NCBI RefSeq assembly: GCF_003334815.1
Contig: NZ_QOWO01000013.1
Length of the DNA: 64,000 nucleotides
Strand: one strand, 5' to 3'
Origin: Escherichia coli
GTDB taxonomy: Bacteria > Pseudomonadota > Gammaproteobacteria > Enterobacterales > Enterobacteriaceae
Made by a program: the position numbers and the translations under genes
In this document: positions 21,380-36,826 of the stretch, piece after piece
Layout: every line of letters starts with the position of its first letter
Position numbering within the stretch: the stretch's first letter is position 1
The notes under the pieces: generated by a model
What the model was told of the DNA's origin: nothing
Database searches by the model: none
Seen by the model: only the letters and a program-made list of their open reading frames with translations

Positions 21380-21391
21380 GGCGGTAGCGTG
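21380..21391 (+). promoter_or_regulatory. ops element (GGCGGTAGCGTG) in the JUMPstart-like leader of the waaQ operon
   Basis: Exact 12-nt ops consensus on the coding-sense strand, 48 nt upstream of the waaQ GTG. Confidence 0.8.
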
Positions 21392-25435: not shown

Positions 25436-26515
25436 ATGAAAATAGCGTTTATCGGCGAAGCTGTTTCTGGATTTGGCGGCATGGAAACTGTCATCCGTGA
25501 TGTTATTACTACCTTCAGGCAACAACATATCCAAAGTGAAATGTTTTTCTTTTGTCGTAATGACAAAATGGATAAGGGATGGCTGGAAGGTATTAAATAC
25601 TCATGTTCATTTTCCAATATTCGTTTAGGTTTTTTGCGTCGGGCGAAACATATTCATGCTCTAAGTAAATGGCTTCAGGAGTACCAACCAGATATCGTTA
25701 TTTGTATTGATGTGATCTCCTGCCTGTTTGCCGCAAAAGCACGTAAAAAATCAGGAATTGATATGCCAGTATTTTCATGGCCACATTTTTCTTTAGATCA
25801 CAAAAAACATGCTGAATATATCACCTGTGCCGACTATCATTTAGCAATCAGCTCTGGCATTAAACAGCAAATGATTAATCGAGGTGTAGCAGAATCGACG
25901 ATAAATGTTATTTTTAATCCCGTCGAAACTAAAGACTCAGTCATTCCCGCGCCCGAGGAAGGTGAAACGGCAACGTTTATTTATGTTGGGCGTATGAAAT
26001 TTGAAGGCCAGAAAAGAGTTAAAGACCTGCTTGATGGCTTATCACAAGCGAAAGGTAACTGGAAACTCCATGTATTGGGTGATGGCTCCGATTTCGAAAA
26101 ATGCCAGGCTTATGGTAGAGAATTAAATATTGATGATCGAATTGTCTGGTATGGTTGGCAACAATATCCCTGGGAATTGGTCCAGCAAGATATTGAAAAA
26201 GTGAGTGCGTTATTGCTCACGTCATCTTTTGAAGGTTTCCCAATGACCCTACTTGAAGCCTTGTCGTGGGGGATTCCTTGTATCAGTGCCGATTGTGTCT
26301 CCGGGCCTGCTGACATTATTCAACCTGATGTCAATGGCCATCTGTATCAACCGGGAGATATTGCTGGTTTTGTAACTCTTCTAAATAAATATATAGCAGG
26401 TGAAATTCATATCGAACATGAAAAAATTCCTGCGTCGATCGATGAATTTTACCAATCGAAGTATTACGATAGATTACATAAGGTAATTATTTCTGCTATT
26501 TCCCGGAGGAAATAA
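25436..26515 (+). CDS. waaB: LPS alpha-1,6-galactosyltransferase WaaB (GT4)
   Basis: ORF track 25406..26515 (GTG); conserved start MKIAFIGEAVSGFGGMETV at ATG 25436 (359 aa). Confidence 0.88.
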   Translation: MKIAFIGEAVSGFGGMETVIRDVITTFRQQHIQSEMFFFCRNDKMDKGWLEGIKYSCSFSNIRLGFLRRAKHIHALSKWLQEYQPDIVICIDVISCLFAAKARKKSGIDMPVFSWPHFSLDHKKHAEYITCADYHLAISSGIKQQMINRGVAESTINVIFNPVETKDSVIPAPEEGETATFIYVGRMKFEGQKRVKDLLDGLSQAKGNWKLHVLGDGSDFEKCQAYGRELNIDDRIVWYGWQQYPWELVQQDIEKVSALLLTSSFEGFPMTLLEALSWGIPCISADCVSGPADIIQPDVNGHLYQPGDIAGFVTLLNKYIAGEIHIEHEKIPASIDEFYQSKYYDRLHKVIISAISRRK

Positions 26516-27534
26516 TGCAGCAGGTGTTTTTCCAGGAAACTGAGTTTCTTAATTCAGTTATTGATTATGATCATAAAGTAGAAACAGAAAATCTTTGTCT
26601 GGACATCGCTTATGGAACTGACAAAAACTTTCTATTTGGTTGCGGAATTTCGATTGCTTCAATATTAAAATATAATGAAGGAAGTCGATTGTGTTTCCAT
26701 ATTTTTACTGATTATTTTGGTGATGATGATCGTAAGTATTTTGATGCCCTGGCGTTGCAGTATAAAACCAGAATTAAAATATATCTGATTAATGGTGATC
26801 GACTGCGCTCATTGCCTAGCACTAAGAATTGGACTCATGCAATATATTTTCGTTTTGTTATTGCAGATTACTTTATTAATAAGGCGCCTAAAGTCCTTTA
26901 TCTGGATGCAGATATCATTTGTCAGGGGACTATTGAGCCACTAATTAATTTCTCATTTCCTGACGATAAAGTCGCAATGGTTGTTACAGAAGGGCAAGCT
27001 GACTGGTGGGAAAAACGCGCCCATTCGTTAGGTGTTGCGGGAATTGCTAAAGGTTACTTTAACTCCGGTTTTTTATTGATTAATACTGCCCAATGGGCGG
27101 CTCAGCAGGTTTCTGCACGAGCTATTGCAATGCTAAATGAGCCAGAAATAATCAAAAAAATAACACATCCTGATCAGGATGTGTTAAATATGTTGCTGGC
27201 GGATAAACTTATTTTCGCTGATATTAAATATAACACCCAGTTCAGCTTAAATTATCAACTCAAAGAAAGCTTTATAAACCCAGTAACCAACGATACTATT
27301 TTTATCCATTATATCGGGCCAACCAAGCCCTGGCATGATTGGGCCTGGGATTATCCTGTATCACAAGCCTTTATGGAGGCAAAAAATGCTTCGCCATGGA
27401 AGAATACGGCGTTGCTGAAACCGAACAATAGCAATCAATTAAGATATAGCGCAAAACATATGCTTAAAAAGCATAGATATCTAAAAGGATTTAGCAACTA
27501 TCTTTTTTATTTTATTGAAAAGATAAAGCATTAA
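26515..27534 (+). CDS. waaO: LPS alpha-1,3-glucosyltransferase WaaO (RfaI; GT8)
   Basis: ORF track 339 aa; GT8 DxD region LYLDADIIC; start overlaps waaB stop (TAATG). Confidence 0.88.
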   Translation: MQQVFFQETEFLNSVIDYDHKVETENLCLDIAYGTDKNFLFGCGISIASILKYNEGSRLCFHIFTDYFGDDDRKYFDALALQYKTRIKIYLINGDRLRSLPSTKNWTHAIYFRFVIADYFINKAPKVLYLDADIICQGTIEPLINFSFPDDKVAMVVTEGQADWWEKRAHSLGVAGIAKGYFNSGFLLINTAQWAAQQVSARAIAMLNEPEIIKKITHPDQDVLNMLLADKLIFADIKYNTQFSLNYQLKESFINPVTNDTIFIHYIGPTKPWHDWAWDYPVSQAFMEAKNASPWKNTALLKPNNSNQLRYSAKHMLKKHRYLKGFSNYLFYFIEKIKH

Positions 27535-29376: not shown

Positions 29377-30228
29377 ATGAAGAATATTAGATACATTGAC
29401 AAAAAAGATGTTGAAAACCTGATTGAAAATAAAACATCTGATGATGTTATTATTTTTCTTTCGGGCCCTACATCGCAAAAAACACCTTTGTCAGTATTAC
29501 GAACAAAGGATATTATTGCTGTCAATGGTTCTGCGCAATATCTGTTAAGTAATAATATCGTTCCTTTTATATATGTACTTACAGATGTCCGATTTTTACA
29601 TCAGCGTCGTGATGATTTTTATAAATTTAGCCAGAGAAGTCGTTATACCATAGTAAACGTTGACGTTTATGAACACGCTTCCAAAGAAGATAAACTTTAT
29701 ATCCTCCAGAACTGCCTCGTATTACGGTCCTTTTACCGTCGGGAAAAAGGTGGTTTTATAAAGAAGATTAAATTTAATATTTTGAGACAGATTCACAAAG
29801 AACTGCTGATCTCTGTACCGTTGTCTAAAAAAGGTCGTCTGGTTGGATTTTGCAAGGACATTAGTCTTGGTTATTGCTCATGCCATACTATTGCCTTTGC
29901 TGCAATTCAAATCGCATATTCACTTAAGTATGCGCGGATTATTTGTTCTGGTCTTGATTTAACGGGTAGCTGTTCTCGTTTCTATGATGAGAATAAAAAT
30001 CCCATGCCCTCGGAATTAAGTAGGGATTTATTCAAAATATTGCCATTTTTTCGTTTTATGCATGATAATGTAAAAGATATTAATATTTATAATTTATCAG
30101 ATGATACAGCTATTTCTTACGATGTAATTCCATTTATTAAACTTCAAGACATCAGTGCAGAAGAATCAAAAGATATGACAAGAAAAAAAATGCAATATAG
30201 AACTTCAACCGATTCTTATGCTAATTAA
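29377..30228 (+). CDS. waaZ: LPS core biosynthesis protein WaaZ
   Basis: ORF track 283 aa; AT-rich; K-12-type core gene order. Confidence 0.85.
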   Translation: MKNIRYIDKKDVENLIENKTSDDVIIFLSGPTSQKTPLSVLRTKDIIAVNGSAQYLLSNNIVPFIYVLTDVRFLHQRRDDFYKFSQRSRYTIVNVDVYEHASKEDKLYILQNCLVLRSFYRREKGGFIKKIKFNILRQIHKELLISVPLSKKGRLVGFCKDISLGYCSCHTIAFAAIQIAYSLKYARIICSGLDLTGSCSRFYDENKNPMPSELSRDLFKILPFFRFMHDNVKDINIYNLSDDTAISYDVIPFIKLQDISAEESKDMTRKKMQYRTSTDSYAN

Positions 30229-30260
30229 TCATCCTGAAACTAAAATAATATGGTATAAAA

Positions 30261-31334
30261 ATGCGCTTAGGAACTTTTCACAAAAAGAAAAGATTTTATA
30301 TAAACAAAATCAAGATTAATTTCCTTTCTTTTTTATTTCGTAATAAAATAAATAATCAAATTACAGATCCAGCACAAGTTAAATCATGCCTTATTATTCA
30401 TGATAATAATAAACTTGGTGATCTAATTGTATTAAGTTCGATTTATCGTGAACTTTATAGTAAAGGGGTTAAAATAACTCTTCTCACAAATAGAAAGGGT
30501 GGGGAATTTCTCTCTAATAATAAAAATATATTTGAGTTCTGTATTAAAGAATCAACCGGTTTTCTTGAAATGCTTACTCTATGTAAGCATCTGCGGGATT
30601 TACAGTTCGATATTGTATTAGACCCCTTTGAAACTATGCCCTCATTTAAGCATAGCTTAATATTATCAAGTTTAAAAGATTCTTACATTCTGGGTTTTGA
30701 TCATTGGTATAAGCGTTACTATTCATTTTACCATCCCCACGATGAATGTTTAAAAGAACATATGAGTACACGAGCAATAGAAATACTGAAGCATATTTAT
30801 GGTGAGGGTAAATTTTCCACCAACTACGACTTGCATTTACCAGTAGATGTTGAAGATAAAATAAAAGAATTTATTGGAGATACAAGAATAGTCATTATTA
30901 ATCCATTAGGTGCAAAAAAAATATGCCGTCTTACGTTTGAGCAAATAAAAGTTATATATCAAGAAGTGAAAACACACTTTGAAAATTATCGGATTATATT
31001 TACCGGGTTACCGCAAGATTTATTGACAATACCAATACTTGAAATCGAAACACTACCATTTGATGAGTTTATTTATACCGTTGCGTTGACCAAGTATAGT
31101 GATTTTGTCATTTCTGTTGATACAGCTCTTGTTCATATCGCTGCGGCTTATCATAAACCAACGCTTGCATTTTACCCTAATTCACGTACTCCGGAATATC
31201 CCTCGCATTTAATTTGGTCCCCGAATCATCATAAATCTATACAAATAGTATCCCCAACATATACGGTAAAAGATATCGATACTGAAACTTTAACTAATTC
31301 AGTAAAGAGATTAAGTTGTATAGATAAGAAGTGA
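30261..31334 (+). CDS. waaU: LPS heptosyltransferase IV WaaU (RfaK; GT9)
   Basis: ORF track 357 aa; last gene of the plus-strand waaQ operon. Confidence 0.85.
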   Translation: MRLGTFHKKKRFYINKIKINFLSFLFRNKINNQITDPAQVKSCLIIHDNNKLGDLIVLSSIYRELYSKGVKITLLTNRKGGEFLSNNKNIFEFCIKESTGFLEMLTLCKHLRDLQFDIVLDPFETMPSFKHSLILSSLKDSYILGFDHWYKRYYSFYHPHDECLKEHMSTRAIEILKHIYGEGKFSTNYDLHLPVDVEDKIKEFIGDTRIVIINPLGAKKICRLTFEQIKVIYQEVKTHFENYRIIFTGLPQDLLTIPILEIETLPFDEFIYTVALTKYSDFVISVDTALVHIAAAYHKPTLAFYPNSRTPEYPSHLIWSPNHHKSIQIVSPTYTVKDIDTETLTNSVKRLSCIDKK

Positions 31335-31351
31335 GTTTTAACTCACTTCTT
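31326..31351. terminator. perfect 11-bp inverted repeat at the convergent waaU/waaL junction (bidirectional terminator-like hairpin)
   Basis: AAGAAGTGAGT-ttta-ACTCACTTCTT; includes the waaU stop codon and ends 15 nt from the waaL stop. Confidence 0.5.
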
Positions 31352-31365
31352 AAACTTGTTTATTC

Positions 31366-32625
31366 TTAATTAATTGTATTGTTACGATTATTAATGACGA
31401 GTAAGAGGACTATAGCGGATATAATGATAATTGGAATGCTGCGTGCCCATATGATCACATCACTGAGTCCAATCCCCACAATGCCAAGCGTTAATATCAA
31501 CAAACCCAAAGCTCGTTTTTTATATGCTATATAAAATAGTGAAAAATAGAGGAAAAGTGTGGAAAAAATTCCCATCAGACCTTTCAGTGACCCTGCTTCA
31601 ATTATCTCATTATGTAGATGTACGTTAGAAAACTCCAATGCCCCTCTTAGCCTATTGTGTTCTGCAACTAACAAATTCATACTTTCAGCGCGTGACTCTG
31701 CTGATCTAAATGAAAAAGGTGACTTTATGAATATATTTAAACCAATTTCGTACATTGCCAGTCTTGCACCTAGGGAAGTAACACTATTAGCATTGGTATA
31801 ACTGTTTAAGTCATTTAATGCTTCATTATAGCGATTCTGTATTGGTTTATTAAATATAATAACAATGCTAGCTAATATAGCAATTAGTAGAACAATAGAG
31901 GAAGTGAATTTCTTGGGTGATTTATTATAATAAGCTATTAATGCAGCAACACAAATTATAGGGAACAGGAGTAGGGTTGCTCTGGTTTGTGTTAGCGCCA
32001 GAACATAAAGTACCGCGCAACTATTTAATAAAAATAAAAAAGGATGATTTTTCTTAGTATAAAGAATCGCAACGCCACTAACTATCCCTATTAGCATTGT
32101 TGAATATGCTGCTCCTGTTGCCGTTCCTACACCAAAAGAAATGCGGTCATTTTCATGAATGCTATTAATATACATTGCATATCCAGCAATTAGAAATGAC
32201 AGAGAATACAAAGTGTATAATACACTCTCTTTTTTTGATTTTAGCTGGCTAGTTAGTGTCAAGAAAACAATAAAAGAACCAAATATAAATATTTTGGCAG
32301 TATTTAAATAACTATGGTAAGTAGCACGAAATGGCGAATTATCTACTTTAAACGCAGAATACCAAATTAAATCAAGCAAGCCTATTAAAAATATAGAAAG
32401 GGGAAGAATAAGGTTTTTTATATTATAATTTTCTTGTCTGCCACGTAAAATTAGTGACAATAAGCAAACTATAGCAGTGATATTATATATTTTTATGCTG
32501 AAAGTATTATCGACGAATGCAATTATCATTGAAAAAAAACATAATATATAAGTTATTATCTCTAAAATCATTGATGATTTCAGAGTGTAAGGTTTCAATG
32601 AATGAAGTTTAAAGGATGTTAGCAT
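31366..32625 (-). CDS. waaL: O-antigen ligase WaaL
   Basis: ORF track 419 aa; polytopic membrane protein, AT-rich. Confidence 0.88.
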   Translation of the reverse strand: MLTSFKLHSLKPYTLKSSMILEIITYILCFFSMIIAFVDNTFSIKIYNITAIVCLLSLILRGRQENYNIKNLILPLSIFLIGLLDLIWYSAFKVDNSPFRATYHSYLNTAKIFIFGSFIVFLTLTSQLKSKKESVLYTLYSLSFLIAGYAMYINSIHENDRISFGVGTATGAAYSTMLIGIVSGVAILYTKKNHPFLFLLNSCAVLYVLALTQTRATLLLFPIICVAALIAYYNKSPKKFTSSIVLLIAILASIVIIFNKPIQNRYNEALNDLNSYTNANSVTSLGARLAMYEIGLNIFIKSPFSFRSAESRAESMNLLVAEHNRLRGALEFSNVHLHNEIIEAGSLKGLMGIFSTLFLYFSLFYIAYKKRALGLLILTLGIVGIGLSDVIIWARSIPIIIISAIVLLLVINNRNNTIN

Positions 32626-36747: not shown

Positions 36748-36793
36748 GTTTCCCTCCATTAGTGGGTAGCGTTTTGATACCAACTGAGATAGG

Positions 36794-36826
36794 AAAAATG
36801 ATGCTTTGGCATCATTTTTTCTTTTT
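36794..36826 (+). terminator. intrinsic terminator downstream of htrL
   Basis: AAAAATGATGC-tttg-GCATCATTTTT hairpin running into a T-rich tract. Confidence 0.55.

Follow-up and report, generated by a model that had tools for sequence, protein, structure and literature searches.

A stem-loop between the convergent LPS-core operons of Escherichia coli K-12 as a probable, asymmetrically working site of transcript 3'-end formation

Intrinsic termination typically places the 3' end of a transcript 7-9 nt past the stem of the terminator hairpin, and Rho-dependent transcripts are said to end at protective stem-loops. Dar & Sorek 2018 (PMC6061677) deal with the mapping of 3' ends in Rho-dependent transcripts, whose termination is considered diffuse. 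For convergent genes of E. coli, a report on bidirectional terminators (Wang et al. 2022, bioRxiv 10.1101/2022.10.23.513370), which draws on the SEnd-seq data of Ju, Li & Liu 2019, describes such elements as prevalent. They are presented there as unlike intrinsic terminators and as independent of Rho, and pausing at a hairpin together with head-on and trailing polymerase collisions is proposed as their mode of action. The model element ynaJ-uspE releases, according to the same report, 9% and 39% of the polymerases in its two directions when transcription is one-sided. Two influences on hairpin-dependent termination have been described in other systems. The tR2 terminator is almost fully repressed by a stop codon located a few bp upstream; its efficiency drops from about 90% to under 10% with the stop at 5 bp, and uncoupling of translation relieves the repression (Li et al., PMC4824070). 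The elongation factor RfaH lowers pausing at hairpins and, in vitro, cuts termination at the intrinsic terminator Thly to about half (PMC2871177). A literature search on waaL/waaU and terminators revealed nothing relevant.

The window, that is, the whole 64-kb stretch of E. coli DNA that was analysed, includes the junction at which two LPS-core operons converge. With a 901-nt query spanning the junction, 100% identity to E. coli K-12 strains was obtained, including MG1655, W3110, and DH5alpha; the gene names waaU and waaL are those of RefSeq NC_000913.3. Published MG1655 coordinates were converted by the relation MG1655 = 3829573 minus window position, the + strand of the window being the - strand of MG1655. 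The features of the junction and of the operon that ends there are the following:

21380..21391, + strand: ops element GGCGGTAGCGTG in the waaQ leader, the RfaH loading site of the operon that ends at the hairpin
30261..31334, + strand: waaU, last gene of the waaQGPSBOJYZU operon, with its TGA stop at 31332-31334
31325..31352, no strand: hairpin with a 12-bp stem (31325-31336 / 31341-31352) and a 4-nt loop (31337-31340)
31366..32625, - strand: waaL, last gene of the hldD-waaFCL operon, with its stop at 31366-31368

The presence of the ops element in the waaQ leader identifies the + strand genes as the RfaH-dependent waaQ...waaU operon, and the - strand genes as hldD-waaFCL. In the Term-seq data of Adams 2021 (PMC7815308), abundant 3' ends were mapped to 3808184/3808183(-), corresponding to window positions 21389/21390. 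They fall within the ops element and are consistent with the ops pause.

A perfect 11-bp palindrome had been described at this junction in the initial annotation, and it is found letter for letter as AAGAAGTGAGT (31326-31336), ttta (31337-31340), and ACTCACTTCTT (31341-31351). The additional pair T31325-A31352 extends the stem to 12 perfect bp, four of which are G-C pairs. The TGA of waaU falls within the left (5') arm, and the gap between the two ORFs amounts to 31 nt (31335-31365). The right arm is separated from the waaL stop by 13 nt, with the stop being upstream of the stem in the direction of waaL transcription. RNA transcribed from either strand folds into the same hairpin with -15.6 kcal/mol (z about -4.8; none of 200 shuffles was as stable), and the TRS tables (PMC10687069) list a hairpin of -15.7 kcal/mol ahead of the waaL terminus. 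Within the 64-kb window, this is the sole perfect inverted repeat of at least 12 bp with a loop of 3-8 nt. Repeats of at least 12 bp were found in none of 60 dinucleotide-preserving shuffles of the window; at a limit of at least 11 bp, three inverted repeats were observed in the window, versus a mean of 0.017 per shuffle (n = 60). The hairpin is real and no chance match.

On the RNA level, published 3'-end maps of both strands provide a clear end for waaL and a weak one in the direction of waaU:

31321..31323, - strand: 3' end of the waaL transcript, MG1655 3798252(+) and 3798250(+) (Adams 2021, supplementary file 1; TRS, supplementary data 2-4)
31350..31360, + strand: weak terminus in the waaU direction, MG1655 3798213-3798223(-) with its peak at 3798215, corresponding to window position 31358 (TRS, supplementary data 2)

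The waaL 3' end at 3798252(+) is classed as "primary" in the Term-seq tables of Adams 2021 (PMC7815308, supplementary file 1), with 3798250(+) appearing in the list for a second condition. It is located 2-4 nt beyond the 12-bp stem, which is 8-10 nt beyond the 6-bp GUGAGU/ACUCAC core. The TRS compilation (PMC10687069) contains the terminus 3798252 in several datasets with R = 0.91-0.94, where R is 1 minus the local read-through across the next 67 nt; such values imply little local read-through, with few read starts in the 67 nt downstream. In the opposite direction, the terminus has an R of 0.56 and stems from a single RNAtag-seq dataset (sheet "E. coli - Barsheshet"). Its adjusted p values in the three libraries are 1.5e-4, 1, and 1.6e-3, respectively, so that it is significant in two of three libraries and narrowly satisfies the TRS acceptance rule, which asks for two libraries and an R of 0.5 or more. 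For the waaU strand between MG1655 3797500 and 3798299, the Term-seq tables of Adams 2021 list no 3' end. If both ends, 3798252(+) and 3798215(-), are genuine, the hairpin lies in the middle of a 38-nt stretch shared by the two transcripts. The proposal of the initial annotation that one hairpin ends the transcripts of both operons is thus borne out in the waaL direction by Term-seq and the TRS values, and weakly, by one dataset, in the waaU direction. As a two-way terminator the hairpin had been read rightly for waaL and partly rightly for waaU, where it is leaky. A Rho termination region was called neither at the hairpin nor just beyond it on either strand in the data of Adams 2021 obtained with and without bicyclomycin (supplementary file 2); the closest such regions lie inside waaL, at 3797836(+), and antisense to waaZ, at 3799398(+).

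Two other hairpins lie within the converging operons. At 27161-27186 on the - strand, a perfect 11-bp hairpin, TAACACATCCTGATCAGGATGTGTTA, is followed by seven T residues (TTTTTTT) and is located antisense within a + strand ORF (26515..27534, waaO by position). Its appearance is that of a terminator of antisense RNA; the Adams 2021 tables include no 3' end at this hairpin. About 100 nt inside waaF, a G+C-rich hairpin at 34540-34518 on the - strand coincides with a published 3' end, MG1655 3795067(+), which is classed as "internal" in Adams 2021 and as "alternative primary in TU" for rfaD in TRS. From this coincidence, a part of hldD-waaFCL transcription appears to end just after hldD.

Judged by its sequence, the junction hairpin makes a poor intrinsic terminator of the canonical type, whichever the direction. 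The stem is stable, with 12 bp and -15.6 kcal/mol, yet it contains only the four G-C pairs, and a U-tract is missing on either side: the tails AACUUGUU in the waaU direction and UCUAUACA in the waaL direction have 3-4 U in the 8 nt past the stem, or 4-5 U in 8 if the tail is taken to include the UUCUUA of the stem. A d'Aubenton-Carafa-type score gave -23 to -52 across both directions, compared with about 0 for the htrL terminator (36791-36822, + strand) and +16 to +51 for the junction hairpins of O157:H7 and of waaK-type loci; this score was computed with modern folding energies, its zero point is uncalibrated, and it serves only for ranking against neighbouring terminators. With only four G-C pairs and nothing like a proper U-tract, strong intrinsic termination of the classical kind is probably not how the ends are formed. 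A consensus scan classified the + strand, i.e., the waaU direction, as terminator-like and the - strand as not. Since this preference is opposite to the experimental maps, the U content offers no explanation of the asymmetry.

Among the described systems, the waa hairpin fits best with the overlapping bidirectional terminators between convergent genes; a dependence on collisions, as proposed for these, may apply to it too. As in these, one stem-loop is located in a very short convergent gap (31 nt) and forms in both transcripts; the 3' ends of both strands flank the stem with a 38-nt overlap, the end of the waaU transcript being the weak one; and by sequence a poor intrinsic terminator is combined with a strength that depends on direction. 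Unlike these, the waa hairpin has an unusually leaky side and a stop codon inside the stem, and one of its two operons is modified by RfaH. With intrinsic terminators, such as that of htrL or those at the junctions of the presumed R3 and R2 core types, it has in common that a transcript ends a few nt beyond a hairpin. In the stem, the A-rich 5' flank (UAAGAA) and the U-rich 3' part (UUCUUA) recall the symmetry of A-tract and U-tract in two-way terminators. It departs from intrinsic terminators in having 4 of 12 G-C pairs, 3-5 U in 8 nt, a far lower score, and a 3' end at 2-4 instead of 7-9 nt from the full stem. Stem-loops that block exonucleases at 3' ends are likewise stable, without a U-tract, and placed directly upstream of the mapped 3' end; unlike what would go with Rho-terminated transcripts, a bicyclomycin-sensitive region was not called at the waa hairpin in the data of Adams 2021.

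A search against Rfam aligned 31374-31323 (- strand) with STnc290 (RF01403) at 25 bits, compared with a gathering score of 60, and with E values from 0.015 (in a search of 201 nt) to 0.08. STnc290 is an Hfq-bound RNA which ends in the terminator hairpin of the IS200 left end and adjoins the IS200 tnpA in Salmonella. The stems are alike, GAAGUGAGU/ACUCACUUC at the junction versus GAAGGGAGU/ACUCCCUUC in the consensus, with one pair being different (G-C versus U-A), and both are barriers to read-through at a 3' end. The match is below threshold and without IS200 context; an IS200 end hairpin was rejected, and the resemblance is likely due to chance. Otherwise, the Rfam search of the region returned only microRNA precursors below threshold. 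A repeat of the REP/BIME type was rejected as well, because the hairpin occupies one place per genome (median 1) and a second perfect 12-bp inverted repeat does not occur in the window. When 100,044 species genomes (one per species) were searched for exact copies of the arm GAAGTGAGTNNNNACTCACTTC, 17 matches came up. Escherichia sp. E1V33 contributes one of them, at the homologous site; the other 16 belong to unrelated taxa and are about as many as chance would give. This search lends no support to a mobile or repeated element.

The hairpin is present in all 1033 E. coli records with a K-12-type junction. A 56-nt query matched over its full length in 1023 of them, with 1029 being at least 99% identical, and the 28-nt hairpin itself is identical in 1023, while the remaining 10 match in inverted orientation only. 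In these roughly 10 records, the loop is TAAA instead of TTTA with unchanged arms, as was confirmed in strains MEW and 06-00048. Such a loop inversion is as expected of strand switching within the palindrome or of two coupled substitutions. The allele of Escherichia sp. E1V33, with 94% identity, carries one substitution in an arm; on the waaL-sense strand it replaces A by G, which leaves a G.U pair in the waaL-sense RNA and creates an A.C mismatch in the waaU-sense RNA. The E1V33 and ST131-type alleles additionally have the waaL stop 6 nt closer to the hairpin, with a WaaL of 421 amino acids and a gap of 25 nt. Over six alleles compared, 3 of 28 columns of the hairpin are variable, against about 0.115 per column in the flanking coding sequence; all three changes preserve the waaL-sense hairpin, and a double compensatory change was not encountered among the K-12-type alleles (at least 92.6% identical). 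As far as these alignments go, conservation adds little, the hairpin not being conserved above the flanking coding sequence.

At the same convergent junction, unrelated hairpins are found in three other arrangements of the LPS-core locus. In the Nissle-type (EcN) locus, in which waaL is on the strand of the long operon and converges with rfaC, a perfect 15-bp stem with A/T flanks is located where waaL(+) meets rfaC(-). The junction hairpin of O157:H7 consists of a G+C core with A5 and T6 flanks, and that of the waaZ-waaK-type locus of a G+C core followed by T8. All three are better canonical terminators than the K-12 hairpin. By their gene content, the Nissle-type, O157:H7, and waaK-type loci are presumably the R1, R3, and R2 core types, respectively. 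A hairpin at this junction is a recurrent, independently acquired feature, and the recurrence of unrelated hairpins supports a role in ending transcripts.

RNA beyond the hairpin is indicated on both strands. Downstream of waaU, two small ORFs are annotated antisense to waaL:

31424..31534, + strand: yibY, 90 nt past the waaU stop (NC_000913.3; Weaver et al. 2019)
31559..31801, + strand: yibX, 80 amino acids, 225 nt past the waaU stop, with the isoform YibX-S starting at 31727

Both were discovered through ribosome profiling of initiation complexes, and chromosomally SPA-tagged YibX and YibX-S were detected under the same conditions as WaaL; a transcript start was not given (Weaver et al. 2019). 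With yibY and yibX lying just downstream on the waaU strand, RNA of that strand exists past the hairpin. The consensus scan detected no + strand promoter-like site from the hairpin to yibY, the closest one (31072-31100) being upstream of the hairpin. We infer from this that yibY, and probably also yibX, is translated from RNA that crosses the hairpin. An own transcription start at 31353-31423 or separate promoters may serve the two ORFs instead. The initial annotation had regarded read-through from either operon as the observation that would speak against its interpretation; such read-through is indicated in part, in one direction, by yibY/yibX RNA on the waaU strand. Their location right behind a leaky hairpin suggests an origin of yibY and yibX by read-through from the RfaH-controlled waaQ operon.

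For the waaL strand, a Rho-dependent region was called from the Adams 2021 bicyclomycin data at 3799398(+) (window about 30175-30975, - strand); it is antisense to waaZ and has a Rho score of 3.4. It is situated about 1.1 kb beyond the hairpin. Upstream of this region, reads amount to 206 per 800 nt, a coverage similar to that within waaL, which indicates waaL-strand RNA past the hairpin, antisense over waaU/waaZ. This RNA may arise by read-through of the hairpin or, equally, from antisense promoters within waaU, where the consensus scan shows several - strand promoter-like sites (31120-30045).

Taking these data together, the hairpin is probably a 3'-end-forming stem-loop common to both convergent K-12 LPS-core operons, working asymmetrically. 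For hldD-waaFCL transcripts, it would define an end that is sharp and fairly complete, 2-4 nt beyond the stem. For those of waaQ...waaU, it would be leaky, and part of the transcription would run on antisense into waaL, where yibY and yibX would be translated. The asymmetry would plausibly be caused by the waaU stop inside the stem and by polymerases carrying RfaH, in analogy to the effects described for tR2 and Thly. A ribosome finishing waaU would cover the ascending arm (about 10 nt past the A site), keep it single-stranded, and impede hairpin formation in the wake of the polymerase; at waaL, 13 nt separate the stop codon from the stem. Polymerases of the waaQ operon, with RfaH loaded at the ops element (21380-21391), would be less prone to hairpin-dependent pausing and intrinsic termination. 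Both effects predict a leak in the waaU direction only, which fits R values of 0.56 versus 0.91-0.94 and the translation of yibY and yibX. End formation itself would more likely be weak hairpin-dependent termination or pausing, as in overlapping bidirectional terminators; head-on polymerase collisions may contribute to it, and the stable stem may also shield the 3' end from exonucleases. Against this explanation stand the poor terminator scores in both directions (-23 to -52) and the borderline statistics of a waaU-direction terminus that comes from one dataset. The variation of the hairpin, moreover, is no lower than that of the flanking coding sequence and includes no compensatory double change, and the waaL 3' end at 2-4 nt past the stem is nearer than the usual 7-9 nt, to which exonuclease trimming fits equally well.

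Such trimming is at the centre of another explanation, possible though on the whole doubtful, according to which the hairpin is a processing stop. Transcription would end downstream, by Rho or by collision, 3'-to-5' exonucleases would trim the RNA back to the stem, and the role of the stem would be mRNA stabilisation. The waaL end next to a stem without a U-tract would be accounted for in this way, as would the waaL-strand RNA past the hairpin with the Rho-dependent region 3799398(+) about 1.1 kb on. The comparison with and without bicyclomycin, however, places no Rho region at or just past the hairpin on either strand, antisense promoters inside waaU could be the source of the RNA upstream of 3799398, and R values of 0.91-0.94 leave few read starts in the 67 nt downstream. 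The processing stop and the asymmetric stem-loop are compatible and not mutually exclusive. Quite unlikely, in contrast, is the version of the initial annotation in which an efficient symmetric bidirectional terminator insulates the operons fully from each other. Equal stability on both strands, 3' termini of both strands that flank the stem with a 38-nt overlap, and the terminator-like rating of the + strand in the consensus scan would agree with it, but neither side has a U-tract, the waaU signal is weak (R 0.56 in one dataset, with two of three libraries significant) and missing from the Adams tables, translation of yibY and yibX takes place a short way past the hairpin on the waaU strand, and the waaU stop is inside the stem, a position shown to repress terminators (PMC4824070).

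It is very improbable that the palindrome acts at the DNA level, be it as a protein-binding site, as a cruciform or recombination site bordering the core-type cassette, or as the remnant of an IS200-type end. The sub-threshold match to STnc290 (25 versus 60 bits) points in this direction, and so does the loop-inverted allele in about 1% of the records, which suggests occasional switching within the palindrome. Nevertheless, the element is present in a single copy per genome, with exact-arm matches elsewhere at about chance level; its flank is waaU coding sequence and not IS200 sequence, the breakpoints between core types are in the 3' end of waaC and not at the hairpin, and RNA 3' ends map to it. 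A functionless chance palindrome would be favoured by the A+T-rich local DNA, by a 5' arm that is partly constrained by the last waaU codons, and by the lack of excess conservation over the flanking coding sequence. The absence of perfect repeats of at least 12 bp from all 60 window shuffles, the fold z of -4.8, the 3' ends mapped beside the hairpin, and the non-homologous hairpins that three other locus types have at this junction make this reading hardly credible.

Summarizing, the asymmetric stem-loop is an ordinary, previously uncharacterised instance of a known terminator class, the waaL-side 3' end of which is already contained in published genome-wide tables. Its significance is mostly one of annotation: a 3' end can be assigned to the hldD-waaFCL transcript, and the waaQ operon turns out to be not tightly closed at its end. 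A mildly new idea is that yibY and yibX would be read-through extensions of the RfaH-dependent waaQ operon, allowed by the stop codon in the stem. If they are read-through products, the junction would be a natural test case for the modulation of a weak two-way terminator by stop-codon placement and RfaH. Rather unlikely, though conceivable, is a further step, in which the hairpin would be a deliberately leaky one-sided gate that RfaH-modified, ribosome-coupled polymerases pass owing to the waaU stop inside the stem, with yibY and yibX as unrecognised distal genes of the RfaH-dependent core operon and with antisense transcription into waaL. Should this be true, head-on polymerases in waaL would tie the expression of the O-antigen ligase inversely to the activity of the outer-core operon.
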